A DNA stretch of 64,000 nucleotides. It comes from an uncultured Anaerolineae bacterium. GTDB taxonomy: Bacteria; Chloroflexota; Anaerolineae; Aggregatilineales; UBA3940. Under the pieces are notes generated by a model. It was not told the origin of the DNA, did no database searches, and saw only the letters and a program-made list of their open reading frames with translations. Shown in pieces: positions 2,902 to 32,929 of this stretch. The position numbers and the translations under genes were made by a program. The stretch is from the NCBI GenBank assembly GCA_964390105.1, contig CAYMGV010000001.1, positions 132,088 to 196,087 of the forward strand. The letters are read 5' to 3'. Within the stretch, counting starts at the first letter, position 1; every line of letters begins with the position of its first letter.

Positions 2902-2930
2902 AGTATAGCGCGTATCTGTAGGGTGGGCAA
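2902..2930 (-). promoter_or_regulatory. Sigma70-like promoter for tRNA-Gln
   Basis: Reverse strand reads TTGCCC, 17 nt, TATACT. The -10 element ends 11 nt before the mature tRNA 5' end. Confidence 0.55.
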
Positions 2931-2955
2931 TGGTTTTTCGCCTGAATTGCGCGGG

Positions 2956-2984
2956 TTGGTCGGTATGCCCCCTTGGGCTATACT
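2956..2984 (+). promoter_or_regulatory. Sigma70-like promoter for the FhaA-like gene, predicting a (near-)leaderless mRNA
   Basis: TTGGTC, 17 nt, TATACT. The -10 ends 8 nt before ATG 2993 and no SD lies between them. Confidence 0.4.
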
Positions 2985-2992
2985 ACGAACCT

Positions 2993-3766
2993 ATGAAGGA
3001 TAACAAACACCTCGACCGCATTGAAGCAAACCTACAGCGCCTGTTTGAAGGCGGGCTGCTGGGCCGGCAGGCCACCCTTGAACTCGGTGAGATGCGTATG
3101 AAACTCGCCGATGCGATGCGTGACGCCGCCGTACCCAACCAGTCAGGCCGGGTCTGTGCGCCACAGCAGTACGGGATCAGTGTCAGCCCGGCTGACTTCC
3201 GTGGCCTGAATCCGCTGGAGGAAGCCCAGGAACACCTGGCGCTTGAGATCACGGCTATCGCTTCTGCGTTGGAGATGCATCTGACGCGCTACCCAAAAGT
3301 GACGATACAAGCCAGCGGCGAGATTGAAGCGGGTAGTTGTCAGATCGAGACACACCATGTCAACGAACCCGACGAATCAACGGCAACTCTTCAGCAGGAG
3401 CAGCCCGTCGTGCTGCCAGTGGTGCCGCCGGGCGCGGCGCTGCTTTATAATGGCACCAGCATTCCGCTGACGAAAACCGTAATCAACCTGGGTCGCCATC
3501 GTGACAACGACATCATCCTCGACAGTGCAACCGTCTCCCGGCACCAGGCGCAGATGCGCCTGCGCAGCGGGCACTTCATGCTGTTTGATATCAGCAGCAA
3601 AGGAACCACCCACCTTAACGGGACACCGGTCAGCGAGGCGTTTCTGAAATCCGGTGATGTCATGCTGCTTGCCGGGGAAACGCTGGTTTACCATGACGAC
3701 CACGAAGGCAGCATCCCCATTGACGAAGATTACACACGTCCCTTTGACCCAGACGGCACGGAGTAA
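2993..3766 (+). CDS. FhaA-like protein (DUF3662-type N-domain plus C-terminal FHA domain)
   Basis: N-terminus MKDNKHLDRIEANLQRLFEGGLLGR resembles the FhaA N-domain. C-terminus INLGRHRDNDIILDSATVSRHQAQMRL...FMLFDISSKGTTHLNG is an FHA domain. The track ORF starts at 2930; I prefer the internal ATG at 2993. Confidence 0.75.
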   Translation: MKDNKHLDRIEANLQRLFEGGLLGRQATLELGEMRMKLADAMRDAAVPNQSGRVCAPQQYGISVSPADFRGLNPLEEAQEHLALEITAIASALEMHLTRYPKVTIQASGEIEAGSCQIETHHVNEPDESTATLQQEQPVVLPVVPPGAALLYNGTSIPLTKTVINLGRHRDNDIILDSATVSRHQAQMRLRSGHFMLFDISSKGTTHLNGTPVSEAFLKSGDVMLLAGETLVYHDDHEGSIPIDEDYTRPFDPDGTE

Positions 3767-3773
3767 CGAGGCC

Positions 3774-4244
3774 ATGCCGTTGGACGTGCTGCTGCTTATC
3801 CTCAAGGTCATGATCGCACTCTCCCTGTACGGGTTTATAGGTGTTTTAGGTTGGATGCTGTGGAAAGATGTCAGTAGTTTTGCAGGAGAAAGGCTCTCAG
3901 GAGGTGTGCGTGCGGTGCTTGAAGTGACCCAAACGCACGAAGAAGTTACGCTCGCCATGGGCACTCGCTTCATTATATATAAGGAAGCGACCATTGGGCG
4001 CAGCCCGGCCAATACCATTTACCTGCCGGATAGTTATGCCAGCACACATCATGCCATTATCGCCACGCAAAACAACGCGCTGATGCTGCGCGACAACCAA
4101 AGCCGCAACGGCACGCTGCTGAATGGTGCCCCGATCTCAGATGGCGTGATCCTTTCGCATGGAGATGAGATCGGCATCGGGCGTGTTACATTCTATGTGT
4201 CGATGGGTGGCGCTGACAACACCATGAGGGAAAGCAACGCATGA
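3774..4244 (+). CDS. FhaB/FipA-like small protein: N-terminal TM helix plus FHA domain
   Basis: MPLDVLLLILKVMIALSLYGFIGVLGWMLW is a TM helix. ATIGRSPANTIYLPDSYASTHHAIIATQNNALMLRDNQSRNGTLLNG is an FHA domain. The track start at 3654 overlaps the previous gene, so I use ATG 3774, 8 nt after its stop. Confidence 0.75.
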   Translation: MPLDVLLLILKVMIALSLYGFIGVLGWMLWKDVSSFAGERLSGGVRAVLEVTQTHEEVTLAMGTRFIIYKEATIGRSPANTIYLPDSYASTHHAIIATQNNALMLRDNQSRNGTLLNGAPISDGVILSHGDEIGIGRVTFYVSMGGADNTMRESNA

Positions 4245-5113
4245 CAGACACATCTTTGATTCGCATCGGTGTGATTGGTGGATCGGGCCTGTACAACATG
4301 CCGGGCTTGAGCGATGTTGAAGAATACCAGGTCGATACGCCATTTGGCTCACCCTCGGATGCCATCGTGATCGGCACACTGGAAGGTGAGCGCGTGGCAT
4401 TCCTCGCACGGCATGGACGCGGACATCGGCACAACCCCAGTGAAGTTCCGTACCGTGCCAACATCTACGCCATGAAGACTCTTGGTGTGCAGCAGCTCAT
4501 TTCGGTGAGCGCCTGCGGTTCATTGCGCGACGATTACGCCCCCGGCCATATTGTGATCCCCGACGGTTTGTTTGATCACACCATTAAACGTCCGCGTACG
4601 TTCTTTGAGGACGGCATAGTGGCACATGTCAGCGTGGCACAACCCTATTGTGAAGACCTGCGGCAAGTGCTGCTTGAAAGCACAGAAGAAGCCGGGGCAG
4701 TCACGCATGATACGGGTGCATTCATTACTATCGAAGGGCCGCGCTTCAGCACCCGTATGGAAAGCAGCCTGTACCGTGCATGGGGGCTGTCGATCATCGG
4801 CATGACCACTTCTCCGGAGGCATTCCTCGCACGGGAAGCCAGCATATGCTACGCCGTGATGGCGCATGTCACCGATTATGACGTGTGGCATGAGAGTGAA
4901 GATCCCGTCACCGCTGAGATGGTGGTGGGAACATTGACGAAAAATATCGCTGTGGCGCAGCAGGCTGTGTCGAATGCCGTTCGCAGGCTCGCAGCATCGA
5001 AACAGGCGTGTGCCCATAACCGGGCACTGGCTGATGCCATCATGACCGACCGGCGCAAGATTCCCGTCGAGACGATTAAAAAGCTTGGCCCACTGCTTGA
5101 CGGATACCTGTAA
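4241..5113 (+). CDS. mtnP: S-methyl-5'-thioadenosine phosphorylase
   Basis: IGVIGGSGLY...VDTPFGSPSD...FLARHGRGHRHNPSEVPYRANIYAMKTLGV matches the MTAP/PNP family. ATGA overlap with the upstream gene. Confidence 0.85.
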   Translation: MTDTSLIRIGVIGGSGLYNMPGLSDVEEYQVDTPFGSPSDAIVIGTLEGERVAFLARHGRGHRHNPSEVPYRANIYAMKTLGVQQLISVSACGSLRDDYAPGHIVIPDGLFDHTIKRPRTFFEDGIVAHVSVAQPYCEDLRQVLLESTEEAGAVTHDTGAFITIEGPRFSTRMESSLYRAWGLSIIGMTTSPEAFLAREASICYAVMAHVTDYDVWHESEDPVTAEMVVGTLTKNIAVAQQAVSNAVRRLAASKQACAHNRALADAIMTDRRKIPVETIKKLGPLLDGYL

Positions 5114-5118
5114 TAGGT

Positions 5119-6441
5119 ATGATTATGAACCTGTGGCAGCCCCGGCAGGTTGACGCCCTGAACCACAGCCGCGAGCGATGGTTACTATTGCTCGCGTTTG
5201 TGTTTGTGGCGTTCAACCGCGTCACGCTGATGCTAACCTACGATCAACCCTTCCTTGCCCTTTGGCCGGTGGCCGCCTGGGCTGGTTGTGTGGTGCTAAG
5301 TCATCTCGCGTTGAACTGGCTGGCCCCGGGCCGTGACCCGTATCTGCTGCCCGTCACACTGCTGCTCGCTGGATGGGGCCTGACTCTCATCGCACGGCTG
5401 GCTCCACCGTTTGCCCCGCGTCAAACCCTGTGGCTCGTGATCGCCACTGGCGCATTGATCACGGCGGCGGCGCTGCCCGCCAACCTCGATATCCTGCGCA
5501 GGTATCGGTACAGTTGGCTGTTTGCCGGGCTGGCCCTGCTGGCCCTGACTTTGGTGCTGGGTGTCAACCCATCAGGGAACCAGTTTGCTCCGCGCCTGTG
5601 GCTGGGCTTTGGCCGGGTGTACTTCCAGCCATCGGAACTGCTCAAACTGCTGATGGTGGTCTTCCTTGCCAGTTATCTCGCGGAAAAGCGCACCGCGATC
5701 CGCACAGGGCAGTGGAAGCTGCTGCGCTGGCACCTGACCCCGGCCCCGTACCTTACGCCGATGCTGCTCATGTGGGGGTTCTGCATGGTGCTGCTGATCT
5801 GGCAGCGTGACCTTGGCGCGGCATCGCTATTCTTCCTTATCTTCCTCGCAATGCTGTATAGTGCGACGGGGCAATACGGCTACCTGATCGCCGGGCTGAT
5901 CATGCTGGCGACTGCGTTCATGCTGGGGTATACCCTGTACGGTGTGGTGCAGCTCCGCGTCGATACGTGGATTAACCCGTGGCCGGAAGCTGATAATCGC
6001 GCTTACCAGATCGTGCAGTCGCTGCTGGCGGTGGCATCCGGCGGGCTGACCGGAAGCGGGTTGGGTCGCGGCGCGCCGGAGTTCATCCCCGTTGTTCATT
6101 CCGATTTCGCGTTTGCCGCCATCGCGGAGGAATACGGCCTGCTGGGCAGCGCAGCGGTCACCATGCTGTTGGCCGTACTCGTCACACGTGCACTGCATAT
6201 CGCTATTAACAATGAAGGTGAACGCCCCTTTCATGCGCTGCTGGCTGCCGGGATCGGTTTTTCGCTGGGATTCCAGAGCTTGTTGATCATGGGTGGCGTG
6301 CTGAAGATCATCCCGCTGACGGGCGTCACGCTGCCGTTTGTCAGCTACGGCGGCAGTTCGCTTCTGTTCAGCTTTCTGATGCTGGGCCTGCTGCTGCGAA
6401 TATCAACACCCGCACGCACCGATGAAAATCCGAGGAGCTAA
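5119..6441 (+). CDS. rodA: SEDS-family peptidoglycan polymerase (FtsW/RodA/SpoVE)
   Basis: 440 aa polytopic protein. Contains QPSELLKLLMVVFLASYL, AVASGGLTGSGLGRG, PVVHSDFAFAAIAEEYG and TLPFVSYGGSS, which are SEDS hallmarks. Sits next to a PBP2-like gene. Confidence 0.85.
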   Translation: MIMNLWQPRQVDALNHSRERWLLLLAFVFVAFNRVTLMLTYDQPFLALWPVAAWAGCVVLSHLALNWLAPGRDPYLLPVTLLLAGWGLTLIARLAPPFAPRQTLWLVIATGALITAAALPANLDILRRYRYSWLFAGLALLALTLVLGVNPSGNQFAPRLWLGFGRVYFQPSELLKLLMVVFLASYLAEKRTAIRTGQWKLLRWHLTPAPYLTPMLLMWGFCMVLLIWQRDLGAASLFFLIFLAMLYSATGQYGYLIAGLIMLATAFMLGYTLYGVVQLRVDTWINPWPEADNRAYQIVQSLLAVASGGLTGSGLGRGAPEFIPVVHSDFAFAAIAEEYGLLGSAAVTMLLAVLVTRALHIAINNEGERPFHALLAAGIGFSLGFQSLLIMGGVLKIIPLTGVTLPFVSYGGSSLLFSFLMLGLLLRISTPARTDENPRS

Positions 6442-6445
6442 CGGC

Positions 6446-7840
6446 ATGGATTCAGAATCGATGAAAGGCCCGATGCGCCAGGGTGCTGCCTTTATGCTGA
6501 TGAGTTTCATGACCATCGCACTGACTGCCGGATACTGGGGCACTGTTCGAAGTGACACACTGACCGCGCGCGCCGACAACCCCCGCCTTGTCATCAACGA
6601 GCAGCGTATCCAGCGCGGCACTATCACCGACCGCGACGGCACTGTGCTGGCACAGTCGGTTACCGAGGACGGCATCCAGCAGCGCGTTTACCCAACCCCG
6701 TCAGCCGCATCCGCCACGGGGTATTACAGCCTACGTTATGGTGTCTCCGGGATCGAGGCCGTATTCGATGAACTTCTGCGCGGTGACACGGCTCTCAGCC
6801 CGGAAGAGGAATGGTGGGCGGATGTACTGGATCGCGCGCAGGTTGGTGGCGACATCCGCATGACGCTGGATGCCGGTATCCAGCAGGCCGCGGCTGAGGC
6901 CCTGGGTGATCAGCCGGGTGCGATAGTAGTGATGGATGCTCGCAGCGGTGAGGTACTGGCCGTACTCAGCAGCCCGCGCTATGACCCCAACCAGCTTGAT
7001 GCGGAGTGGGACACCCTCACCGAAGACCCATCGGCCCCGCTGCTCAACCGCGCAACCCAGGGCCAGTATCAGCCGGGTGCGGTGCTGGCCCCGGTGCTGC
7101 TGGCCGGGCTTGAATCCTATACCCTTACCGACATGACCCCCATCTGGTCGATCAGCGGCAGTGCGGGAGTCAACGGTGACTTTCTGCGCTGTTCAGGGTC
7201 ACAGTATGCCGCTACATTAGACGACGCCATCATCAACGGATGCCCCAGCCCACTCAGTGAGGCCGCCGAGGCACTCGGAAAAGAGAGGCTGGCGACGTTA
7301 TTCGACGATTTCGGGCTGCTGCAGGAGCTAGAGTACAACCGGCCCGGCGCGCAGCCTGCCCCGATCCCCATGCCAAATGACTCGCTGCACAGTATCGGCA
7401 TCGGTCAGGGGATGCTGACCCTCTCACCGATGCAGATGGCACGTGCGATTGCGGCGATTGCCAATGGCGGTGAGCTGCCCCCGGTGCGTTTTACCGCAGA
7501 AACACGCCTCTCGCCTAATTCGCCGTGGCAGGCGGCAGAACCCGCCGGGCGTGTGCGTGGCGTCACCGGGCAGAATGCGGTGGAATACGTGCGTGCGTTG
7601 ATGCTGGAGAGCGTGCAAAGTGGTGCCAGCAGCAAGGCCGCTCAACCCGGCATGGTGATAGCAGGCCACACCGCCTATGCCATCGCGGATGAAGCGGGCC
7701 GCCTTGATGAGTGGTTTGTGGGCTGGATCGAGCCATCAGGTGGTGATCCGATTGCCATTGCCGTCATCGTGGAGGACAGCGGCGAAGCGCCCGTCAATGC
7801 CGCCGAGATCGCAGGCCGGGTGCTTGCCGCTGCGCGATAG
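6446..7840 (+). CDS. Class-B penicillin-binding-protein homologue with degenerate catalytic motifs (likely pseudo-transpeptidase)
   Basis: PBP2-like stretches include IVVMDARSGEVLAVLSSPRYDPNQL and LLNRATQGQYQPG. The SxxK position reads AVLA and the KTG position reads HTA. Start chosen at ATG 6446, with SD GAGGAG 8 nt upstream. Confidence 0.8.
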   Translation: MDSESMKGPMRQGAAFMLMSFMTIALTAGYWGTVRSDTLTARADNPRLVINEQRIQRGTITDRDGTVLAQSVTEDGIQQRVYPTPSAASATGYYSLRYGVSGIEAVFDELLRGDTALSPEEEWWADVLDRAQVGGDIRMTLDAGIQQAAAEALGDQPGAIVVMDARSGEVLAVLSSPRYDPNQLDAEWDTLTEDPSAPLLNRATQGQYQPGAVLAPVLLAGLESYTLTDMTPIWSISGSAGVNGDFLRCSGSQYAATLDDAIINGCPSPLSEAAEALGKERLATLFDDFGLLQELEYNRPGAQPAPIPMPNDSLHSIGIGQGMLTLSPMQMARAIAAIANGGELPPVRFTAETRLSPNSPWQAAEPAGRVRGVTGQNAVEYVRALMLESVQSGASSKAAQPGMVIAGHTAYAIADEAGRLDEWFVGWIEPSGGDPIAIAVIVEDSGEAPVNAAEIAGRVLAAAR

Positions 7841-7891: not shown

Positions 7892-9238
7892 TTAAAGAAG
7901 GCCCTGCGCCTCAGCAGCGATGCGCTCAAGGCGCATTGCTACCGGCTCATTCCCCGCCATGCGGAGCTGATCGACGAGTTCGCCCATGGTCTCAACGACC
8001 TGCGGCGTCAGTTCGTCACGACGTTCGCGCAGCATTACCAACGAGGCTTCCTCGGTTTCAGCAGAAAGCACCTGGTTTATGAAGCGGATTTCGGGCGGTG
8101 CGCTGGCTTCGATCATGCTGATAACTTCATCGCGCACGGTTTGTAAGCGGTCCAGTATCTCCTGGTTGCCGGTGCGTGCCGCTTCTTCCATATTGAATTG
8201 AAGCACCTGCAGGAACAAGTCATCAACCAGGTCGGCGTTCTCGCGCACGGCGGCTCGCACATCCTCCGCCTGCAGAAACAGCAGCAGCGTATCGGACGCC
8301 TTCCTGGTCACAGCCTGCTGCTGCTGCTCGATCTCGGCGGCGATGGAAACCAGGCGCTCCCGCATCTTTTTCAGCGTCTTGCGCTCGATATCAGTCTCGG
8401 CGTTTTCAATGCGCCCGGTGATCAGTTCAAAGGTGTTGTAATCCAGCAGCCCCCCCGCCACCGATGCAATGGCATCGAGCTTGACATCATTGTGGGCATG
8501 ACGGCACAGCAGGTCCACAAAGCCTTCGCGCGTAAGGCCCGCTTCATTAAGTGCCTGGATTTCCTCGATGACGTCACGGACGGCCTGTTCACGATGCTTG
8601 ATGCGCTGGCCGACTTCAGTGGTTTCGAGCAGCTTGGCCCGCAGGTTGAGCAGGCGCAGGCTGGTCCGCGAGTCACCGGATTCCCCGGCGGCCCTGGCGA
8701 TCATATCCATCATCTCCAGGAATGATTCATCGACCATGTCGATATTATCCTGGAGCATCTGATCGGCCTCGGCGGACTTCACCCCAGCCAGCTCATTAAT
8801 AAACGCCGCCTTGTGGCGTTCGGCCTCGATGACCTCCGGTGTGATGCCGTCCGCTTCGAGCACCTGGTCGATCAAACCTTGTAGAGTCAGTGCCATAGCA
8901 GGTTGAAGCAAATAGCCCTTGTTGGCCTCTTCTGGCAGCGAACGCATAATGGCCTGCGTCATGGTGCCGATCAACTGCTCGCGGTCGGCCTCTGGCAAGT
9001 TGAGTTCCATCGGCACATGGATGATGGCGAGGTTCTTGGCGTGATCATGGTACATCAGCGGCGTCCCGACCATGCCCTGGTAACCACAGTGTGGGCATGT
9101 AATAACGTTAATGCGCCCACTGAACAGCCGTTCCTTCACGGAAGGGTCGATGCGGGTATCCAGGATTTGTTCGATAATCGCGCCAAATGGCTGCCCGCAG
9201 TTGGGACAGTTGATATTCGTTGGCGTTGGTTTTGCCAT
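7892..9238 (-). CDS. CpXC-domain protein with a long helical C-terminal region
   Basis: N-terminus contains INCPNCGQPF...VITCPHCGYQG (paired CxxC, CpXC-like). The remaining ~350 aa are helical and acidic with no recognised domain. Confidence 0.6.
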   Translation of the reverse strand: MAKPTPTNINCPNCGQPFGAIIEQILDTRIDPSVKERLFSGRINVITCPHCGYQGMVGTPLMYHDHAKNLAIIHVPMELNLPEADREQLIGTMTQAIMRSLPEEANKGYLLQPAMALTLQGLIDQVLEADGITPEVIEAERHKAAFINELAGVKSAEADQMLQDNIDMVDESFLEMMDMIARAAGESGDSRTSLRLLNLRAKLLETTEVGQRIKHREQAVRDVIEEIQALNEAGLTREGFVDLLCRHAHNDVKLDAIASVAGGLLDYNTFELITGRIENAETDIERKTLKKMRERLVSIAAEIEQQQQAVTRKASDTLLLFLQAEDVRAAVRENADLVDDLFLQVLQFNMEEAARTGNQEILDRLQTVRDEVISMIEASAPPEIRFINQVLSAETEEASLVMLRERRDELTPQVVETMGELVDQLRMAGNEPVAMRLERIAAEAQGLL

Positions 9239-9340: not shown

Positions 9341-10900
9341 TCAACCCTGCGGTGAAAGCCGTGGCAGCGCGACGATGAAAGATGCCCCTTCACCCGGCTG
9401 GCTTTCGACACGGATAGTGCCGCCATGCCCCTCAACGATGGACCGCACGATGAACAACCCCAGCCCGGCCCCCTGCGTAGCGCGGGCCAGCGTATTCTCG
9501 ACACGGTAGAAGCGGTCAAAAATCTGGTCCTGTTGATCGGCATCCAGGCCAACGCCTTCATCGCTGACGGCAATTTCAACCTGATCGGCATCAAAACGGC
9601 CCGCAACTGTGATCTCACCACCATCGGGTGCATACTTGATAGCGTTACTGATCAGGTTCGAGAAAACCTGGGCAAGACGGCGATCATCTCCCTCGATACC
9701 GGGCAGATCGTCAGGCAGATCAACGTGGATGGTGTGCTGATCCGTCTGTGTCTGGAAGGTTTGTGCCAGCCGGTTCAGCATATCACGCAGATTCACCTGT
9801 GCAAAGTGAAGTTGCAGGGTGCCCAACTGCACGCGGGACACATCCAGCAGATTGTCGATCAACTCGGCCAGCTTGTCGGCCTCATCCTCAATGACGGAGA
9901 TGCTGTTCCTCAAGGTCTGTGCGTCCCAGGTTACATCGTCACGGGTTAAGGTGCTGGCATAACCTTTTATCAGCGATACCGGTGTCTTGAGTTCATGCGA
10001 AATGACGGAGATGAAGGTATCCTTCGCCTCCTCAGCTTCCCGAAAGCGCGTGATATCACGCACATTGGCAATGATGTGACTGCACTGTCCGTTGACATTA
10101 AACAGCGGCGCATAGGTGATGCCCACGCTGAGATGTGAGCCACTGGAATGCTGTAGGTCGCCCTCCACGTAGAGGACGCTGTGCTGATTGAGCGGCCAGC
10201 CATTGGCGGCGGCCTCCTTTAAATCGATGCCGGTGGTTCGGTGCGCCCACCGGATCACCCGGTCATACGGTTGACCTGCTGCTGCATCGACCGGGACACC
10301 CGTCATGCGAGCCAGCGCCAGGTTGACGTTCTCAACACGCAGATCGTTATACAGCGTCATGATGCCATCGGCGCTGTGGCGCAGGATAGCATCCATCCGC
10401 TGCTTTTCACTCACCACCCGCTCATAGAGCCATGCGTTATGGACAGCAATCGCAGCCTGATCGGCAAAACTCTGCAACAATCGGCGGTCATTGTGAGAGA
10501 AGCTGCCCCCGGCCTCTCGGAAGATGTACACCACACCGACGAGATTTGCACCGATGATCATCGGCAGCGCCACCACTTGATGCAGCCCCATCCCGGCAGC
10601 CTGCGCCACCATGCGCATTTTCTCATTGAGTTCCGGGATCAAGAAGTCACTGGCATCCCCACGTGGGATGTCGGTAAGCAGCGGCTTGAAGTGCTCCAGC
10701 AGCGCAGGAGGAATGCCATAACTGGCACGAACGGCAAACACATCCTTTTGCGCAAGCGCAATGATTCCCGCCTGACCACCAAGCAATTCGGTGGCAGACT
10801 CGAGAATGCGGCGCAGGACTTCATTCAGGCTCAGTTCCGAAGTCAGTGACCGTGAGATATTGAGTAATTGATCGCGCTGCCGTATCAGGAGTTCAATCAT
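9341..10900 (-). CDS. Cytoplasmic sensor histidine kinase (GAF-PAS-HisKA-HATPase)
   Basis: H-box is ISVISHELKTPVS. N and G boxes are NLISNAIKYAP and DEGVGL...GAGLGLFIV. A GAF-like N-terminal half precedes a PAS-like segment. Confidence 0.85.
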   Translation of the reverse strand: MIELLIRQRDQLLNISRSLTSELSLNEVLRRILESATELLGGQAGIIALAQKDVFAVRASYGIPPALLEHFKPLLTDIPRGDASDFLIPELNEKMRMVAQAAGMGLHQVVALPMIIGANLVGVVYIFREAGGSFSHNDRRLLQSFADQAAIAVHNAWLYERVVSEKQRMDAILRHSADGIMTLYNDLRVENVNLALARMTGVPVDAAAGQPYDRVIRWAHRTTGIDLKEAAANGWPLNQHSVLYVEGDLQHSSGSHLSVGITYAPLFNVNGQCSHIIANVRDITRFREAEEAKDTFISVISHELKTPVSLIKGYASTLTRDDVTWDAQTLRNSISVIEDEADKLAELIDNLLDVSRVQLGTLQLHFAQVNLRDMLNRLAQTFQTQTDQHTIHVDLPDDLPGIEGDDRRLAQVFSNLISNAIKYAPDGGEITVAGRFDADQVEIAVSDEGVGLDADQQDQIFDRFYRVENTLARATQGAGLGLFIVRSIVEGHGGTIRVESQPGEGASFIVALPRLSPQG

Positions 10901-20917: not shown

Positions 20918-23353
20918 GTGGCATCTGAAACCAGTCCTTTCGAATCCCAGTACGATTCCAGCACAGTAGCCGGGATCATCCGCAGTGGTGCGAGCCTGTT
21001 AAAGGCACGCCATATTGCCGCGCGTGCCACCTCGCACCGTGTCAGCCTGAGAGAATTCGTCGCTGACTGGTTTATTTACGGTGCGATGATCGTGGGACCC
21101 GCCATTGTCCTCGATACGCTGCAAAACATCCGGACCGCCATCACAGGAAGACCGCGCGAGCATGTCGATGGCTCGTGGCAGTTCTACCTGTACACCGGCC
21201 TGCGTGAGGACCTTGCTCACCATACCAATGAGACCACTGGATACCAGGCTGATCGTCCTGCTGGTGCAACTGATCTGGACGATCTGACGGCGTGGGTTAT
21301 GACCCTGATCCAGTTCGCCTGGAGTTACGACACTTTAATGGGTGTGGTTTGGGATGAGTGGACCCTGCTGCGGCTGGTGAATAAATATGCGGTACAGGCA
21401 GGGCTGGCGGACACCAATTTATTCGACCGGCTGCAACGCCAATGGGAACTGAAACGCCCGTACGATGCCCCATTGAATGGCACCTACGCGGATGTGCGCA
21501 AAGCCGCTTTCGATGCATTTATCACTCCCCGGATCAGCCAGCTACCAGGGCAAGTCCAGCGCCAATTAAAGCATGAGATAGCAACACTACAGATTGAGCG
21601 CAGCCGCTACGTAGAACAAATGTCCTTACTGGCGTGTATTGCGCCGGGCCGCTACCTTGACAAGCGCCAACGCATTGAGATATGGGATGCGCACATCGCG
21701 ATCATCTATGAAGGTCGTTACCATCTGATCCAACTGATAGCCTGCGATGAGAGCGGGCATCCTCTGATGTTCCTGCCGGACGGCTCATGTGAAAAACTCA
21801 AGATCGTGGACGGCAGCCTGTATCATGGCAGGTACGGGCGTCTCGTTACAGATGGCGAGCAGCTTTTAGCCATCGAGTTCGAGAATCGCCCGGTAGGCTA
21901 CCTTGATATGGTGTCGGTGGCACAGGTGCGCGACCAGCTAAGCCAGATTCTTGCGTCGCCACGACAGGAAGACTGGGAGCGAGCCAACCAGGTCGATATT
22001 CTGCTATCGGAAACTCCACGCCGACACCACCAGGGCCTGCGCCGTGAGCTGCCGAGACGTACCCGGAATCAACTTCTGGCGCTGCAAAAAACCCCGGTGA
22101 TCATCAACTGGGATGAACGTGACAGCAGCAACACGTTAGCTGAACTACGCCGGGCACAGCGCGGCATAGGTGACCATGCGCTGACCGTCATCAAGACCGA
22201 TAGCACCATGGTGTTTGACCAGCATCATATCTTCTTTGATGGCACATGGTCACTGGCGATGGCTGAGGTTCTGACCAGCGCAGCGGCGCAATGGTGCAAA
22301 CGCAGCATGGCGATCCCGCCAGTTGAGACGCGCCCTGCCCGCGCGTTCCGGCTCGAGCCTTCCGAGAACTTCCTGGTCAAGGCGCGTGATTTGCAGCAGC
22401 AGCCAGAAGTGTCCGCGGAAACAACCATTTTCGATATCTCGCAGATATTCAAGCTTCGCAAGATGCTGTTTGAGGTGACTGGCACACAGCTTACCGTCAA
22501 CGACCTTTTAATGACGACCCGTATTTTTCACGCAGCGCATTACACGCCATCCCTGCCCGTACAATCAGCACTGGATGAGTTCCGCGCAACCGCCATCACC
22601 AAGGATGAAGAAGAAGCGCTGCAAGCCATTGAGGTTTCACTGGAGCGAGGACGCTTGATTAACCCGGCGCTGCTTATCCCGGTTGATGCATCACCAAGCG
22701 TGCCTTACGAGCGCATTTACCCGATCACATTCCGCAACCTGCTCGATCAAATGGTGTGGATATGGGATGAGACATGGGATGCTTACCAGGCATATCGACG
22801 CATTGAGCCACCAAACACGCCCGAAGGTATCGCAGCCTATGACCGGTTTGTCGAAAAGCGGCACGAGTTGGCATCAACGCTGCGTACCTTCAGCTCAGTT
22901 TTTGAGGCGATGAAGCGTGTCGCACTGCGCGGTGGCAGCGTCAACATTGCCATTTTGAAGCTGATGGTAGGCCTCCCGGTGTGGATGCAGTACTACATCC
23001 GTGGTTTTGCCGAGGTCTTCGCAGTAGTTAATGAAATCGCCCGTGGTGAAGAAGTGTACTCTAATGTAGGGCGTGTGGCGAAAGGCTCGACTCTTTCGCG
23101 CTTCATGAGTGCGCGGGATGACGGCAAGACCAAGACGCTGGTGTGGGGAATTATGACGGATGACCACAACCGCATGATCGTCACCATGCGGGACTTCAGG
23201 CTGCATGTCAAACCGCTGATGGAGGCCGGGCATGAAGAACTTGCCCGCAAATTGGCGCAGGATTATGTTAACAAATACACGGAAGCACTGATTGGGTTGG
23301 TGGCCCGAATGTGGGCCATGTTGAAGGCGACGGATCCGCGCACGATGGAGTAA
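20918..23353 (+). CDS. Large (811 aa) hypothetical protein with no domain recognised
   Basis: Long uninterrupted ORF with a GTG start, followed by a strong terminator. I could not identify any catalytic or structural motif by eye. Confidence 0.6.
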   Translation: MASETSPFESQYDSSTVAGIIRSGASLLKARHIAARATSHRVSLREFVADWFIYGAMIVGPAIVLDTLQNIRTAITGRPREHVDGSWQFYLYTGLREDLAHHTNETTGYQADRPAGATDLDDLTAWVMTLIQFAWSYDTLMGVVWDEWTLLRLVNKYAVQAGLADTNLFDRLQRQWELKRPYDAPLNGTYADVRKAAFDAFITPRISQLPGQVQRQLKHEIATLQIERSRYVEQMSLLACIAPGRYLDKRQRIEIWDAHIAIIYEGRYHLIQLIACDESGHPLMFLPDGSCEKLKIVDGSLYHGRYGRLVTDGEQLLAIEFENRPVGYLDMVSVAQVRDQLSQILASPRQEDWERANQVDILLSETPRRHHQGLRRELPRRTRNQLLALQKTPVIINWDERDSSNTLAELRRAQRGIGDHALTVIKTDSTMVFDQHHIFFDGTWSLAMAEVLTSAAAQWCKRSMAIPPVETRPARAFRLEPSENFLVKARDLQQQPEVSAETTIFDISQIFKLRKMLFEVTGTQLTVNDLLMTTRIFHAAHYTPSLPVQSALDEFRATAITKDEEEALQAIEVSLERGRLINPALLIPVDASPSVPYERIYPITFRNLLDQMVWIWDETWDAYQAYRRIEPPNTPEGIAAYDRFVEKRHELASTLRTFSSVFEAMKRVALRGGSVNIAILKLMVGLPVWMQYYIRGFAEVFAVVNEIARGEEVYSNVGRVAKGSTLSRFMSARDDGKTKTLVWGIMTDDHNRMIVTMRDFRLHVKPLMEAGHEELARKLAQDYVNKYTEALIGLVARMWAMLKATDPRTME

Positions 23354-27711: not shown

Positions 27712-28863
27712 CTACGGTTCTTGCACAAGTTGCAACTCCACCCAGTTTGTCATCCCGGCCTGTACCGTCAGATCAACCTCCCAGCTCAGGGTGCTGAAGC
27801 TGGCCTGAGCCAGATACCGCCCTTCGGGGACATCAGGAATCACGAAGTTCTCCTGCCAGTGATCATCCGGGTTGACACTGCTCCCGGCATAGGTCGTTGT
27901 GCGGTGAGTGATATAGCCTGTTTGCTGGCTGATGAGGATGATCTCGGCATCCAGTATTTCGATACCGGATGGCATTTCCAGCCGCCCCGCGACTACCCCC
28001 GTCCCAAGGTATGGTGCAATCCACAAGTCCGGGTTACGAACGGCAGAATAGCGATTCTCGCCCAGCCGTACCTCGACATGCACATGCGGGCCACTCACCT
28101 GCCCTGTGTTACCGATGAGGCCGATCACGTCACCTGAGGAGACGCGCTGCTGCTCCTCAACAAGGATCGAGGCCATGTGCGCGTACAGTGTATATACGGG
28201 CTGGCCTTTGTAGCCGAGGTCATGCTGTATAACGACCGTATTTCCATAGGATGTAATGCCCTCGTACTGGTTAAAGTGCCCTTTTTCAGCCCAGATTACC
28301 AGCCCATCAGCGGCAGCCTGAATCTCAACGCCGATCGGGTTGGAGAGATCAATGCCATGATGGATTCGAAGGTTATTCCCCGCGCCATCGGAGCCATAGG
28401 GATAGTATGGCAGGCCGGAGTTGCGGTAGTTCGCTGCCACCGGGCGAATGAACCAGTAATGATCGTTGGCCTGCCGGGCCAGCGGCACTTCAAACGACGG
28501 TGGGTTCCAGTCTATGGAGGGCGATTCCTCATCAGTGGGCTGCGTGGGTGATGCGATAATGGGCGCTTGCAGGTCATTGGCCGAAATGCCCTGTGACGGC
28601 CCCGAAACAACCGGTGCGGAAGTGGTTGGAGTCGGCCTTTCCGCTGCTTCGCCGGCCTCCGTTGGCAGATAAATAGCCGCCGCTTCAACATCGGTGGTGG
28701 GCAACTGCCCCGCATCAAACGCCTGCCCCCCGGCTAACTCCATCACCGGCACCGGAGCCTCATTGTCAGCAGAGAGATTCCGCGTGCCGCCGGAGATTTG
28801 CAGCAGGGCGACCATGATCCCCAGCGTGGCGAGAAGCCCCAGGATCGGACCCAGCCGTTTCAT
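27712..28863 (-). CDS. M23 (LytM-type) peptidoglycan endopeptidase, secreted
   Basis: Signal or TM N-terminus. HHGIDL (HxxxD) and GPHVHVEV (HxH) are M23 zinc ligands. A C-terminal beta-rich domain follows. Confidence 0.8.
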   Translation of the reverse strand: MKRLGPILGLLATLGIMVALLQISGGTRNLSADNEAPVPVMELAGGQAFDAGQLPTTDVEAAAIYLPTEAGEAAERPTPTTSAPVVSGPSQGISANDLQAPIIASPTQPTDEESPSIDWNPPSFEVPLARQANDHYWFIRPVAANYRNSGLPYYPYGSDGAGNNLRIHHGIDLSNPIGVEIQAAADGLVIWAEKGHFNQYEGITSYGNTVVIQHDLGYKGQPVYTLYAHMASILVEEQQRVSSGDVIGLIGNTGQVSGPHVHVEVRLGENRYSAVRNPDLWIAPYLGTGVVAGRLEMPSGIEILDAEIILISQQTGYITHRTTTYAGSSVNPDDHWQENFVIPDVPEGRYLAQASFSTLSWEVDLTVQAGMTNWVELQLVQEP

Positions 28864-30761
28864 TGAGTAAACACCTCGCTAATGCGGCTCGCCGGGTAGA
28901 TTTCAAGCATGGCCTCCTCCCACGTCAGGTCACTTTCCTTGTGGTATTCCCAGTAGCGAATGGCAGGCCAGTTGTAACGCCAGCTCGCATCGGACGGCAC
29001 CGGTTCCCAGCCATATATCCATGCAATCTGCGTAAAATCGATATAATACCCGCTGGGGATACTGTCCTTGAAGCGGCCACCGTTGTCATAAGCGGTTACA
29101 TCGCCGCTGCTGCGCGAGGAAAAATCCCAAGGCAGCCTGTGCAGCGGCTCGCCCACAGAACCATCCTGTACACTGGCTCGCACGTAAATGCGCCAGTACC
29201 GCTCCGGCCCCCGTGGGTCGGGCACCACCTCGACCTGAGCCGGGCTGCCTTCGTTGTACGCCTGCGCAATAGCAATGGCCCGGCCAGCCTTATGCCAGCT
29301 TTCGAAATCCTGACCTGGTTCGGCGGGCCGGTCGATCTCCCACCAGGCCTCATCGAGACGTCCGAGGAAATCCCAGCCTGCTTCCTGCGCGATTCGATCT
29401 CGCATCGCCACATACGAGGCATCGACCTGATCACTCAGATACGGGGAATCAACAATGACCCCCGGAAGGCTGAACAGCAGGTAAGGTGCATCACCGCCAG
29501 TTTGGGGTGTCACTACTTCTTCGTAAGCAGGAGGTATTGGTTCATCCTGGGCCAGCAAAATCTCACCCTGGTACGAAACCGGGAATGAGGCCGCACTCCA
29601 ATCCGGGTTTGAGACAGATGACGGCAAGGCAAACACTTGTGATGATGCTGACCATGCGCCGGCCTCCCCCGTCAGCAGCAGGTTGCTGTTAGGCCGATCT
29701 GCGATGAACGCTAATCTCGTGCCACCCGGACTCCATGCAGGCTGACGCCCCTGCCCGATCAGGGATGGGGCGTCAGCTTCTGTGTGTGGATCGATGGAAT
29801 AGACCAGGGAAATGCCGTCCTCTACCACGCGGTACGAAATCCGTGTCCCGTCATCGTTCCATGCAGGGGAATCCTCGCGCAGATCGTCTGTGGCCGTGAT
29901 GTTGCGGGCGCTTTCCTCACTCGGGTTATCGAGTGACATCAAGTAGATATCCTGCTGATGGCCGCGCTGTGAGGTATACGCCAGGTAACGTTGATTCGGG
30001 TTGGGAGACCATACTGGCGCATAATCAGCGCCCGATTGTGTGGTCAGTGGATAAGGCCCCTCGGCCCCGTCTGCACGTATGATATAGATATCCAGATTGT
30101 TATTATAGTAGGCTTCGTATGCAATCCACTGTCCATCGGGACTCCATGAAGGCGCGGATTCATAGGCAAGATTGGCCGTCAAACGCTGGATTTCACCGGT
30201 CTCGACCACCATGATGTACAGTTCCCAGTTGCCATCGCGTCGTGACGAGAACGCAATCCGTGAGCCGTCCGGGCTCCATGCCGGCATGCGATCATCCTCC
30301 AGCGAGGCAGTCAGGCGCACAGGCGCAGCGGAACCCGATGGCAGCGCGTACAAATCGCTTTGCCCCCCCACCAGCAGCGAGAAGATCAGGGTGCCTGAAT
30401 TGCCGGGCAATGCCGGTGCATCGATGACCGCCCCGCTGTCCACGGGGGTATCCCCTCCAATGGCTGACGGTGCGGCACCAACGGTAAAGAAGCGCACGAC
30501 CGGGTTTGCGGCTTCGAGGTTGGTGGACCAAAGCAGGACGGCAACAAATGAGAGGAGCAGAAGTACCACCAGGCTGCTTAGTGAACTGACGCGAGCGGTG
30601 GCCGCCCGGCTGCCTTCATGCTGCGCAGCACCAGCCGGCAAACGAGCGCCGCGCAGCGCCAGCCAACTCTGGGCACGCGGCAGCTGATCACCCAACCATG
30701 CCAGGATGCGTATAAAGAACTGGATGCTTCGATCAATGAGGCGTAGCAACCTGATAATCAT
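28860..30761 (-). CDS. TolB-like beta-propeller (PD40/WD40-like repeats) protein with an N-terminal TM anchor and a C-terminal unknown domain
   Basis: Repeated PAWSPDGSRIAFSSRRDGNWELY, PSWSPDGQWIAYEA, PVWSPNPNQRYLAYTS and PAWSPGGTRLAF. ATGA overlap with the M23 gene. Confidence 0.75.
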   Translation of the reverse strand: MIIRLLRLIDRSIQFFIRILAWLGDQLPRAQSWLALRGARLPAGAAQHEGSRAATARVSSLSSLVVLLLLSFVAVLLWSTNLEAANPVVRFFTVGAAPSAIGGDTPVDSGAVIDAPALPGNSGTLIFSLLVGGQSDLYALPSGSAAPVRLTASLEDDRMPAWSPDGSRIAFSSRRDGNWELYIMVVETGEIQRLTANLAYESAPSWSPDGQWIAYEAYYNNNLDIYIIRADGAEGPYPLTTQSGADYAPVWSPNPNQRYLAYTSQRGHQQDIYLMSLDNPSEESARNITATDDLREDSPAWNDDGTRISYRVVEDGISLVYSIDPHTEADAPSLIGQGRQPAWSPGGTRLAFIADRPNSNLLLTGEAGAWSASSQVFALPSSVSNPDWSAASFPVSYQGEILLAQDEPIPPAYEEVVTPQTGGDAPYLLFSLPGVIVDSPYLSDQVDASYVAMRDRIAQEAGWDFLGRLDEAWWEIDRPAEPGQDFESWHKAGRAIAIAQAYNEGSPAQVEVVPDPRGPERYWRIYVRASVQDGSVGEPLHRLPWDFSSRSSGDVTAYDNGGRFKDSIPSGYYIDFTQIAWIYGWEPVPSDASWRYNWPAIRYWEYHKESDLTWEEAMLEIYPASRISEVFTQ

Positions 30762-30846
30762 GGCGAAATCATAACACGCTCACTACCTGCGCGAAAGTGT
30801 CTATTATCGAGTTGCCCGCCCTTCTTGATCGGAATACCATATCGGT

Positions 30847-31686
30847 ATGAGACGTAACCGGAAGATCAGGCCAATCCAGGTAATTGTTAAAGGAATCGGT
30901 GTGGTGACTGCCGCAGGCATACTGACCCACAGTGCCAGCGCTGCCCAGCATCTGATTCACTACGAAATGCTGCCCGCTGATGACGTTAGGCAGCTTGGCC
31001 TGTTTTATGGAACACCCAGCCGGGAGATATTTGCCGTCAACGAAGAAGACTGGCGCTCCAGTAATTTACTCACCATACCCTTTGATGTCGCCGAGGGCTA
31101 TGTCGGTGCATCCATCCCACCAGGTGCCTACACCATCCGTCCGGGCGACACACTGTACAGCATCGCAGCACGCAGTAAAACGCCCATCGTGATGATCGCG
31201 GCATTTAACGAGATCGAAAATGTTAACGAATTGGAAGCTGGCAGCGAGATCGTCATCCCTAACGAGATCGAACTCCGGCAGATGGAATCAGGAGAGTACC
31301 CCTTACCCGGTGCCCCCTCCCCCACTGTCTATGACGGCAAACAGATTATCGTCGCTCTTTCGCAGCAGCGGACATACGCTTTTGAAGATGGCAAGCTGGT
31401 GCGGTTTTTCCTTGTGTCAACCGGTTTATCGAAAACACCAACCATCCAGGGCAACTATGAGATTTACCGGCAGTTGGAAACGCGCCACATGACTGGCCCC
31501 GGCTACGATCTGCCTGATGTACCCTATGTCAGTTATTTTATTGCTGGCTACGCTTTTCATGGTACCTACTGGCATGAAAATTTCGGGACGCCGATGAGCC
31601 ATGGTTGCGTTAATATGGTGACAGATGAAGCACGCTGGCTCTATGAGTGGGCTGAGATCGGCACCCCGGTCCGCGTGATTCCCTGA
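30847..31686 (+). CDS. LysM-domain L,D-transpeptidase (YkuD family)
   Basis: LysM domain: YTIRPGDTLYSIAARSKTP...LEAGSEIVIP. YkuD catalytic region: YAFHGTYWHENFGTPMSHGCVNM. Confidence 0.85.
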   Translation: MRRNRKIRPIQVIVKGIGVVTAAGILTHSASAAQHLIHYEMLPADDVRQLGLFYGTPSREIFAVNEEDWRSSNLLTIPFDVAEGYVGASIPPGAYTIRPGDTLYSIAARSKTPIVMIAAFNEIENVNELEAGSEIVIPNEIELRQMESGEYPLPGAPSPTVYDGKQIIVALSQQRTYAFEDGKLVRFFLVSTGLSKTPTIQGNYEIYRQLETRHMTGPGYDLPDVPYVSYFIAGYAFHGTYWHENFGTPMSHGCVNMVTDEARWLYEWAEIGTPVRVIP

Positions 31687-31721
31687 CCCCACACGCCAAG
31701 GCAAGGTGTACTGCTGGTAAC

Positions 31722-31950
31722 AGCGGGGATCGACAGGGGGCGAAAGCGGCGACATGCCCCTCTCGACTCGCCGGAGAAGGAGTAAGTCGCCATATTTAGC
31801 GATATGGTGTTGCCCGATCGCCCGGAGAGGGCATTGCCTACTGAGCATAGCGAAGTAGGTCAGTATATCGCTAAGTACTGGAACTAGTTTTCGGCAGCTT
31901 GCTGGCGAAATGTCCCTGAGCCGGGCGCGAAGGGGTAGTTCCAGTACCTG
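31722..31950. ncRNA. Candidate structured RNA of unknown class (hairpin-rich, GC-rich intergenic segment); strand unresolved
   Basis: Four non-overlapping hairpins. (1) 31730-31740/31757-31766, 9 bp plus 1 mismatch. (2) 31788-31795/31802-31809. (3) CCTACT/AGTAGG at 31837-31842/31854-31859. (4) Perfect 12-bp GTACTGGAACTA/TAGTTCCAGTAC at 31875-31886/31936-31947, enclosing two smaller GC-rich hairpins. The segment lies upstream of the consensus promoter at 32011, so it is not that gene's leader. No convincing ORF. Confidence 0.35.
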
Positions 31951-32010
31951 TTAATATCATGATTTACTCATTTTTGACCTAACGCCTTCACACAAACGCC
32001 ACAGACGGCT

Positions 32011-32039
32011 TTGACAGCATCATAGGGAAGACGTATAAT
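32011..32039 (+). promoter_or_regulatory. Consensus sigma70 promoter for the S1-domain gene
   Basis: TTGACA (32011-32016), exactly 17 nt, TATAAT (32034-32039). Confidence 0.75.
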
Positions 32040-32041
32040 CC

Positions 32042-32093
32042 AGCCCGGTATTCGGGCTTTGTTTTGCTTGTTCCCCTTTTTAAAAGCCCGGTA
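32042..32093 (+). promoter_or_regulatory. Leader element: duplicated AGCCCGGTA flanking the complementary CGGGCT and a U-rich tract
   Basis: AGCCCGGTA occurs at 32042-32050 and 32085-32093. CGGGCT at 32053-32058 can pair with either copy. TTTGTTTTGCTTGTT follows the first hairpin, and the SD AGGAG follows the second copy. Confidence 0.3.
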
Positions 32094-32104
32094 GTAGGAG
32101 AAGA

Positions 32105-32809
32105 TTGTCCGTGACTGAAGTAGCAGCAACATCCCTATCAGAGTTACAGCCCAAAATGCAGTTGACCGGCACAGTCAAACGTATTGAGTTGACTGGTGCC
32201 CTGGTGGATATCGGTTTCGAGCAAGATGCGATCTTACTGAATTCCCAGGTAAAGACGCGTGGCGGCGAAACCATCCGCGAGGCGCTGAAGCCGGGGCAGG
32301 AGATCAAGGTCTGGGTTCGCAGTGTGGCAGAGGACGGCTCGGCTGTCGATATCACTATGTTTCGCCCTCCGGAAGTGGAGTGGCGTGACATCGCTGAAGG
32401 CAAGGTCTTCAGCGGCACTGTCACCCGCATCAAGAAGTTCGGCGTTTTTGTCGATATCGGTGCTGAACGTCCGGGCCTCGTCCACATCAGCGAACTGGCC
32501 CACGACTATGTCGAGAAGCCGCAGGATGTCGTTGAGCGTGGTAACGAGGTGCAGGTCAAGGTAATCGGCTTCGACCGCAAGAAGAAGCAGATCGACCTGA
32601 GCATCAAGGCACTCGAGACGCCCCCGATGCAAGAGGTTTACACGAACGACGAAGAACTGCCAACAGCCATGGCCCTTGCGTTCCAGCGTGCACGTGAACG
32701 TAGTGACCCCATGGAAGACGGCAAGCCGTCAAAGCGCAAGCAAAAGCAGGAACAATCGGAAGAAATCTACCGTCGCACACTGGAGCGTCACCAGGACGGC
32801 GAAAGCTAG
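32105..32809 (+). CDS. Tandem S1 RNA-binding-domain protein with a basic/acidic C-terminal tail
   Basis: S1 domain 1: MQLTGTVKRIELTGALVDIGFEQDAILL. S1 domain 2: GKVFSGTVTRIKKFGVFVDIGAERPGLVHISELAHDYV...VQVKVIGFDRKKKQIDLSIK. TTG start at 32105, or GTG at 32111. Confidence 0.8.
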   Translation: MSVTEVAATSLSELQPKMQLTGTVKRIELTGALVDIGFEQDAILLNSQVKTRGGETIREALKPGQEIKVWVRSVAEDGSAVDITMFRPPEVEWRDIAEGKVFSGTVTRIKKFGVFVDIGAERPGLVHISELAHDYVEKPQDVVERGNEVQVKVIGFDRKKKQIDLSIKALETPPMQEVYTNDEELPTAMALAFQRARERSDPMEDGKPSKRKQKQEQSEEIYRRTLERHQDGES

Positions 32810-32849
32810 CGACGACTGTTCTGTATGTTGCTGCGCGTCTGCGGAATCA

Positions 32850-32880
32850 AAGAGGGGTAGTTCACACTCCCCCTCTTTTC
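32850..32880 (+). terminator. Intrinsic terminator after the S1-domain gene
   Basis: AGAGGGG...CCCCCTCT hairpin followed by TTTTC. Confidence 0.6.
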
Positions 32881-32929
32881 CTCGTTTATTCACAGGTTGC
32901 AGAGCCTGGCATCACACTGTATCGCTTCT

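Follow-up and report, generated by a model that had tools for sequence, protein, structure and literature searches.

In the current literature, a polymerase of the SEDS family and its penicillin-binding protein of class B (bPBP) are described as two-enzyme machines, composed of the polymerase and a cognate transpeptidase. In actinobacteria, such a pair is encoded within the fhaA-fhaB-pstP-rodA-pbpA-pknA-pknB operon, where pstP sits between the FHA genes and rodA. Here, we describe a locus from an uncultured Anaerolineae bacterium, located in a stretch of 64,000 nucleotides of contig CAYMGV010000001.1 (the whole stretch is called the window below), whose PbpA-type gene at positions 6446-7840 encodes a bPBP homologue deprived of all three catalytic motifs of the family: SxxK, SxN and KTG. 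As in the actinobacterial operon, rodA immediately precedes this gene, and genes for FhaA-like and FHA proteins lie further upstream. The operon in the window differs from the actinobacterial one by the presence of a gene for S-methyl-5'-thioadenosine phosphorylase (MTAP) before rodA, and by the lack of PstP and of adjacent pknA/pknB.

The best structural match of the protein is PbpA of Mycobacterium tuberculosis (Rv0016c; 3un7/3lo7), which possesses the same transmembrane anchor, PBP_dimer_2 pedestal and transpeptidase fold, as well as a cysteine at the x-position of SxN. M. tuberculosis PbpA, however, has the full set of SxxK, SxN and KTG, and its acyl-enzyme complexes with beta-lactams have been solved (3upn/3upo/3upp), whereas the window protein lacks all three motifs.

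A structural or activating role of a bPBP, separable from its chemistry, was suggested earlier by Ser-to-Ala mutants, in the laboratory only. A catalytically inactive bPBP variant was used in in vitro assays of FtsW activation (bioRxiv 10.1101/358663), and transpeptidase-dead B. subtilis PBP2b (S-to-A) and C. difficile SpoVD S311A still support septal synthesis, provided that another PBP is present (PMC12713402). The title of a correction by Nelson et al. points to E. faecalis PbpB as a drug-inactivated or transpeptidase-dead case, with Pbp4 cross-linking in trans. In these bPBPs the chemistry is absent and the protein still needed, presumably as a SEDS activator, with cross-links provided by another PBP; the window protein, likewise without the chemistry, would resemble them. 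The wild types of PBP2b, SpoVD and PbpB are active and their dead forms are laboratory mutants or antibiotic-blocked enzymes; in contrast, the loss in the window protein is natural and complete, and losses of this type are fixed in a clade of hundreds of species, whose sequences also changed in other clade-specific ways. Nature thus offers in this clade an old and widespread example of a partner that was kept although its chemistry was discarded. The same evolutionary logic is known from the degenerate LytM (dLytM) factors EnvC and NlpD, catalytically dead homologues of wall enzymes which activate another wall enzyme, although these have a different fold, a different partner (amidases instead of a SEDS polymerase) and no sequence relationship to the protein described here.

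Chimeric SEDS-bPBP proteins were reported as 'class B bifunctional synthases' in a domain-based survey (Microlife 2025, PMC12516126). Similarly, RodA is fused N-terminally to a PbpA-type protein in 16 of the 80 loci related to ours (locus counts over 80 refer throughout to the best 80 of 435 matching genomes). The Anaerolineae fusions differ from the 'bifunctional' chimeras in carrying mostly a dead transpeptidase domain, and the window gene itself is unfused. A full-text search of that survey for active-site terms, SXXK included, gave no match, and no description of a naturally motif-less bPBP was found in the searchable literature.

Catalytic motifs and predicted fold of the protein

The gene at 6446-7840 (+ strand) is an intact open reading frame (ORF) for a motif-less PbpA-type bPBP homologue, or pseudo-transpeptidase, of 464 aa. 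An earlier note, made from the letters of the DNA alone, had read this product by eye as a bPBP which lost SxxK, SxN and KTG, with both the Ser and the Lys of SxxK changed to Ala, IAGHTAYA at the KTG position, no SxN/SxD in the expected region and no other S-x-x-K at a plausible position. All of this was borne out when the motif register was set with phmmer against PbpA proteins of solved structure (Atopobium 4n1x/4jbf), in an alignment where 'qpgAvlAp' of the query faces 'spgSsfKt', 'inGCPsp' faces 'arSSNta' and 'iagHTAya' faces 'iagKTGta'. In this register the former SxxK box reads A212-V-L-A215 (7079-7090, + strand), the former SxN box G265-C266-P267 (7238-7246, + strand; clade consensus (A/G)-C-P) and the former KTG box H408-T409-A410 (7667-7675, + strand).

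Scanning of the whole protein with regular expressions revealed neither S-x-x-K nor K-[ST]-G. The wider pattern [KHR][ST]G has RSG at residue 166 as its sole match, the sole S-x-[ND] (SPN at residue 356) lies off the aligned SxN column, and the protein contains just three lysines (K7, K279 and K397). With the regular-expression and per-column scans both empty, displaced catalytic motifs were ruled out, including an SxxK or KTG elsewhere in register. SxxK, SxN/SxD and K(T/S)G, the last on strand beta3, are the three motifs defining membership among D,D-transpeptidases, and as this protein has none of them, neither 'D,D-transpeptidase' nor 'penicillin-binding' is a proper label for it. Since the nucleophile and the base are missing, its covalent acylation by beta-lactams is predicted to be negative. 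A homologue of an enzyme family without the catalytic residues, conserved in its lineage under purifying selection, is what is operationally called a pseudoenzyme, and the protein answers to this description. An orthologue of 84% identity, encoded on an independent contig (locus L001), carries identical residues at the catalytic positions.

The architecture of the protein is that of PbpA, with the Pfam domains PBP_dimer_2 (PF21922; 50.5 bits, cutoff 27) and Transpeptidase (PF00905; 116.2 bits, cutoff 22.1), the latter matched over profile positions 1-297 of 299. An AlphaFold2 (AF2) model built on 114 homologues reached a predicted local distance difference test score (pLDDT) of 92.5 and a predicted template modelling score (pTM) of 0.90. 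It contains an N-terminal helix (residues 7-34), which we take as the transmembrane anchor, followed by the pedestal (approximately residues 56-156) and the transpeptidase fold (approximately residues 157-464). The top match of the model in Foldseek was M. tuberculosis PbpA 3un7 (E 3e-32, template modelling (TM) score 0.75-0.80), and the best matches in the PDB were the M. tuberculosis and Atopobium PbpA proteins (E ~1e-31, TM score 0.7-0.8). The check by profile and AlphaFold proposed in the earlier note thus gave a PbpA fold with no motifs in register. According to the model, the membrane anchor, the pedestal and the complete transpeptidase fold are retained and the chemistry alone is lost; by structure and descent, the protein is a bPBP of the PbpA subfamily. 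Its score with TIGR03423 is roughly half that of the active sister (190 vs 337 bits), and the Pfam Transpeptidase score is 77-116 bits for motif-less proteins vs 217 bits for the active sister. In the scan of species-representative genomes described below, the closest match had 45% identity.

The motif-less clade and its constraint

Seven catalytic residues were scored in the homologue set of 114 aligned clusters. All seven are kept in 43 clusters and two or fewer in 70, with one intermediate (P0023). The active relatives invariably have Ser (43/43) and Lys (43/43) in the respective columns of SxxK. Among the 70 motif-less members, the Ser is replaced by G, A, T or L and the Lys by Q (50 members), E or Y, while SxN became (A/G)-C-P, the C being universal (70/70) and the P nearly so (68/70). 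The first position of KTG is H in 49 of the 70 and otherwise Y, Q, I, F, V, N or L, and its later positions are occupied by variable residues. After deletion of the motif columns, the 70 clusters were still monophyletic in 98 of 100 neighbour-joining bootstraps.

To these clusters a scan of one genome per GTDB species was added, based on the signature NR[AV][TIL]QGxYQP, and it gave 435 species-representative genomes with a confirmed relative. The titles of the best 80 are nearly all Anaerolineae, Aggregatilineales, Ardenticatenia, Thermoflexia or Chloroflexota; a lone 'Pleurocapsa' metagenome-assembled genome (MAG) among them is probably mis-binned. The Lys of SxxK, the SxN and the KTG are missing in 80/80 loci. 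When 1.84 billion representatives clustered at 50% identity were searched with a profile, 144 of the best 147 further matches were motif-less and 3 active. None of the 80 loci or of these 147 representatives has a broken ORF. Because the L001 orthologue, the homologue clusters, the loci and the representatives agree, the motif loss is neither an error nor a matter of chance. The survey of orthologues suggested in the earlier note therefore found the same losses well beyond the window, and the loss which that note had described is real, but it is a trait of a whole monophyletic clade rather than an oddity of a single gene. The catalytic loss is a single event in the stem of a large clade, retained since then under purifying selection; it is an ancient trait, so far seen almost only in genomes titled Anaerolineae or Chloroflexota.

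The nearest outgroup of the clade is formed by P0018-20 together with P0023 (53/100 bootstraps). P0018-20 are fully active and occupy the same MTAP-RodA-PBP position as the motif-less proteins, which supports, at the level of gene order, orthology of the latter to active enzymes. The P0023/P0131 cluster (L084:8001-9377; 6 member sequences), located within a full FhaA-FHA-MTAP-RodA-PBP operon, shows partial loss: A..N stands for SxxK, G-C-N for SxN and K-V-G for KTG, so that the Ser and Lys of SxxK and the Ser of SxN are gone and the N and K-x-G are kept. As it groups with the active sister proteins, outside the motif-less clade, it apparently represents a second independent loss, or else a transitional state; on the former count, proteins encoded in this operon context abandoned the catalytic site two or more times. 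A hint that the context itself may predispose the protein to giving up catalysis comes from the P0023 group.

The naming of clade members varies. PGAP calls one of them (P0125, MBE2182487.1, of the P0029 cluster) a 'hypothetical protein', and the JGI names for others are 'peptidoglycan glycosyltransferase' and 'penicillin-binding protein A'. The annotation of the clade is inconsistent and functionally misleading, which is a warning that domain-based annotation ('penicillin-binding transpeptidase', 'peptidoglycan glycosyltransferase') and surveys built on it over-count functional transpeptidases. The MTAP-RodA-dead-PBP arrangement occurs twice (L004 and L005, 81% protein identity) in one MAG, DAOUES01 of Anaerolineae isolate N6_304, the copies being either true paralogous pairs or a strain mixture in the bin.

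The ratio of non-synonymous to synonymous substitution rates (dN/dS) was calculated by the Nei-Gojobori method for the window and the 84%-identical L001 orthologue. It equals 0.084 for the PBP, 0.086 for RodA and 0.06-0.13 for the neighbouring genes, and within the PBP it is lowest in the transpeptidase domain (0.068), compared with 0.11 in the transmembrane part and 0.13 in the pedestal. For 59 other pairs from the clade, all unsaturated comparisons fell between 0.05 and 0.38. By these ratios, the PBP gene is under purifying selection. The conservation pattern has shifted at the same time: some 20 columns which active relatives conserve have become variable in the clade (S212, S265, T409, T411, A315, F319, H421 and G446 among them), and conservation was gained at juxtamembrane and pedestal positions R42, D44, R112, L128 and H129, as well as at W361 in the transpeptidase domain. 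Relaxed catalytic and gained pedestal columns are the pattern expected of a pseudoenzyme with a binding or structural role.

The protein has exactly two cysteines, C249 and C266, both invariant in the clade (70/70); in active relatives their equivalents occur independently of each other. C266 is the 'x' residue of the former SxN, and C249 (7190-7192, + strand), located in the beta-hairpin region, is its probable disulfide partner. According to a structural survey, bPBPs in general depend functionally on a contact of the SxN x-residue with the beta-hairpin region, and in M. tuberculosis PBPA (3un7) this contact is a disulfide bond (PMC9974482). Because of this precedent, and because the pair is co-invariant and comprises the sole cysteines of the protein, Cys249-Cys266 is probably a structural disulfide staple rather than a new nucleophile.

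The RodA partner and the proposed role of the protein

The gene upstream of the PBP encodes a RodA/FtsW-family SEDS peptidoglycan polymerase (5119-6441, + strand; Pfam FTSW_RODA_SPOVE, 237 bits). It keeps QPSE, the Asp of RDLG, HSDF and SYGGSS when aligned to P. aeruginosa FtsW (25hr/8bh1; RodA 6bar was also matched), and there is no exception among 79 partner RodAs in the conservation (100%) of the key residues, namely the QPSE Glu, the RDLG Asp, H-x-D and S-Y-G-G. The adjacent SEDS polymerase with intact-looking motifs, as seen in the earlier note, is thereby confirmed, at a distance of 4 nt. The PBP gene starts with an ATG placed 4 nt past the rodA stop codon and 8 nt 3' of a Shine-Dalgarno sequence, GAGGAG, which was read directly in the sequence within the 3' end of rodA (6432-6437, + strand); in this arrangement, translation of the PBP is coupled to that of rodA. 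On the sequence evidence, the polymerase has been kept intact while the active site of its partner was lost.

Five genes, FhaA-FHA-MTAP-RodA-PBP, lie head to tail on the + strand, and this order recurs in most of the 80 loci. The RodA-PBP fusions are single ORFs of approximately 890-960 aa (including those in L018, L021, L022, L029 (L029:4540-7293), L030, L040, L042, L046, L048, L049, L062, L069, L079, L080 and L081), and fused motif-less proteins are also found among the representatives (P0193, P0202, P0237, P0242, P0251, P0255 and P0275). The junction consists of the RodA C-terminus, a short linker and the transmembrane helix of the PBP, which is consistent with the topology, and independent gene calls of the fusions contain FTSW_RODA_SPOVE, PBP_dimer_2 and Transpeptidase in Pfam. 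Among the fused representatives there is one, P0214 (901 aa), with every catalytic motif present, hence fusion and catalytic loss are independent events. The motif-less PbpA homologue is genetically locked to an intact SEDS polymerase, its gene having remained tied to a RodA with all catalytic motifs by co-transcription, translational coupling or fusion.

We consider it likely that the window protein is a catalytically dead descendant of a PbpA-type D,D-transpeptidase, acting as the partner of RodA. By analogy with other SEDS-bPBP pairs, its transmembrane helix and pedestal would bind RodA and allosterically license the glycan polymerase. The transpeptidase-shaped domain would form no acyl-enzyme and would neither cross-link nor bind beta-lactams covalently, persisting as a rigid module stapled by the Cys249-Cys266 disulfide; possible tasks of this module are placing the complex on the wall, non-covalent binding of stem peptides and docking of a cross-linking enzyme. 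The strands made by RodA would be cross-linked in trans, by L,D-transpeptidases such as the one encoded at 30847-31686 or by PBPs encoded elsewhere. The upstream FHA proteins suggest a possible control by Ser/Thr phosphorylation, as in the actinobacterial fhaA-fhaB-pstP-rodA-pbpA operon. A physical RodA-PBP complex and its allosteric activation are supported indirectly, through the natural fusions and the gains of pedestal conservation, and on the model of described pairs we infer that the protein may be RodA's obligate partner or activator, with cross-linking in trans.

Several points weigh against this explanation. RodA activation, the non-binding of beta-lactams and cross-linking in trans are all steps which we infer. 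The transpeptidase domain is under tighter constraint (0.068) than the pedestal (0.13), which a pure RodA-activator model does not predict, and an activity so far overlooked may reside in the domain. The score of the SEDS partner is slightly higher for FtsW than for RodA, and the pair might act in division rather than in elongation. The L,D-transpeptidase gene lies 23 kb from the operon, and such genes are found near the operon in only 2 of the 80 loci. The scan pattern includes 'YQP', and the 435 genomes measure the abundance of the clade, not a fraction of the Anaerolineae. Beta-lactam insensitivity of a cultured relative is similarly two-sided: Thermomarinilinea lacunofontalis, a cultured member of the Anaerolineae, is reported to be insensitive to ampicillin and penicillin G and inhibited by vancomycin (PMC4070665), which is suggestive as circumstantial support, but beta-lactams are unstable at the temperature of the test (60 °C), and the result could also be due to other routes of resistance.

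The constraint on the transpeptidase domain, together with the invariant cysteine pair, means that the dead fold is probably still needed for something. The proposal of the earlier note, that the protein is retained only as a SEDS activator or scaffold, is consequently upheld as far as a non-catalytic, SEDS-coupled protein is concerned, whereas 'only' understates a transpeptidase domain with such a low dN/dS. The clade lets one test the role of a transpeptidase fold unable to transpeptidate, and its hundreds of variants and natural fusions form a system for mapping the parts of a bPBP which are needed for SEDS activation.

A much broader statement, that the whole class Anaerolineae permanently uncoupled SEDS polymerisation from D,D-transpeptidation, with cross-links made in trans only and a new non-catalytic job for the dead transpeptidase domain, appears to us possible but rather doubtful. 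If true, the cross-links would plausibly be of the 3-3 type, made by L,D-transpeptidases, the synthase would be intrinsically blind to beta-lactams, and the new job could be, for example, reading stem peptides or recruiting a cross-linker. The clade also raises the question of wall cross-linking and of the response to beta-lactams in filamentous Chloroflexi, which abound in activated sludge, sediments and hot springs.

Among the rival explanations, the one which survives best, yet is unlikely, assumes a non-catalytic wall sensor or regulator: the dead pocket would bind stem peptides or D-Ala-D-Ala, and wall status would be reported to RodA or to an FHA/Ser-Thr-kinase pathway, in a manner resembling PASTA-domain or BlaR-type sensing. 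The strong constraint on the transpeptidase fold, the clade-specific conserved Trp (W361) in this domain, the two FHA-domain proteins opening the operon and the Ser/Thr kinase encoded in the window at 32930-34039 would suit such a function. However, residues lining the pocket in active enzymes became variable, which argues against conserved ligand recognition at this site, and the RodA fusions and pedestal gains point to the canonical partner role. Ligand binding is here a supposition, and the sensor overlaps with the RodA-partner explanation rather than opposing it.

A replacement catalytic set, for instance a Cys266/His408 pair that would give a thiol enzyme with stem peptides as substrate (a transpeptidase or a peptidase), is distinctly improbable. 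Cys266 is indeed invariant, His replaces the Lys of KTG in 49 of the 70 members and the transpeptidase domain is the most constrained region. On the other hand, Cys266 occupies the 'x' of SxN, whose equivalent in the nearest solved homologue, M. tuberculosis PBPA, makes a disulfide and not catalysis (PMC9974482), and its likely partner Cys249 is co-invariant, the two being the sole cysteines, which fits a structural disulfide. Moreover, His408 is not invariant, no new conserved nucleophile or base column was found in the transpeptidase domain, and the relaxed columns of the clade (about 20) include the catalytic ones; the Cys266/His408 dyad was therefore rejected as unlikely. That the protein is a decaying remnant, a functionless passenger of an operon whose RodA works alone or with a different bPBP, is the least credible explanation by far, and was rejected on dN/dS and conservation: the absence of all catalytic motifs, the roughly halved scores with PBP models in comparison to the active sister and the 'hypothetical protein' name given by PGAP to one member speak for it, but the ORF is intact in the 80 loci and 147 representatives, dN/dS is 0.05-0.38 clade-wide and, for the window and its L001 orthologue, equals the RodA value, the AF2 model has high confidence, pedestal motifs gained conservation, and repeated in-frame fusion to RodA is hard to square with a useless gene.

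Remaining genes of the operon and the window

The operon opens with a gene for an FhaA-like protein (2930-3766, + strand; Pfam FhaA_N 42.7 bits, FHA 47.9 bits), followed by a small FHA-domain protein resembling FhaB/FipA (3774-4244, + strand; Pfam FHA 63.4 bits). The ORF of the latter is open from 3654, and its likely start was set by a 156-aa orthologue (L001 7330-7800). The MTAP gene (4241-5113, + strand; PNP_UDP_1 164 bits, TIGR01694 313 bits with a cutoff of 274.85) has its start overlapping the stop of the small FHA gene and encodes an enzyme of methionine salvage; its position between the FHA genes and rodA is shared by most of the 80 Anaerolineae loci and by the active sister group (L087). 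Downstream of the PBP, a convergent gene encodes a 448-aa CpXC zinc-ribbon protein (7892-9238, - strand), next to a GAF-PAS histidine kinase (9341-10900, - strand). The former is found downstream in approximately 14 related loci, L001 included, and the latter in 18, and they may share a functional neighbourhood with the operon.

The L,D-transpeptidase noticed in the earlier note was confirmed as a LysM and YkuD protein (30847-31686, + strand; YkuD 85.7 bits, LysM 41.8 bits) which keeps an intact His/Cys catalytic motif, HG...SHGCVN, and is a candidate for the trans-acting cross-linker. No second PBP was detected in the 64-kb window when its ORFs of 80 aa or more were all searched with a family profile (hmmsearch). 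The L,D-transpeptidase gene belongs to a loose wall-related group located 20-26 kb from the operon (27712-34039), with an M23 peptidase (27712-28863, - strand), a PD40 beta-propeller protein (28860-30761, - strand) and the Ser/Thr protein kinase (32930-34039, - strand), the sole one found in the window and 25 kb distant from the operon.

The window DNA, of approximately 56% G+C, is chromosomal and also contains rpoC, gyrA and relA/spoT. Three of its ORFs matched no Pfam family at the thresholds used: 20918-23353 (+ strand, 811 aa), 34487-35344 (- strand, 285 aa) and 55743-56975 (- strand, 410 aa). Between 36000 and 42300 the G+C content falls to 0.51 from approximately 0.56, with GC skew up to +0.16 around 38-40 kb. 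This region may be an integrated element; it encodes membrane proteins of the DUF2207 and SPFH types, and at its end lies a gene with weak similarity to phage integrases (41209-42240, - strand).

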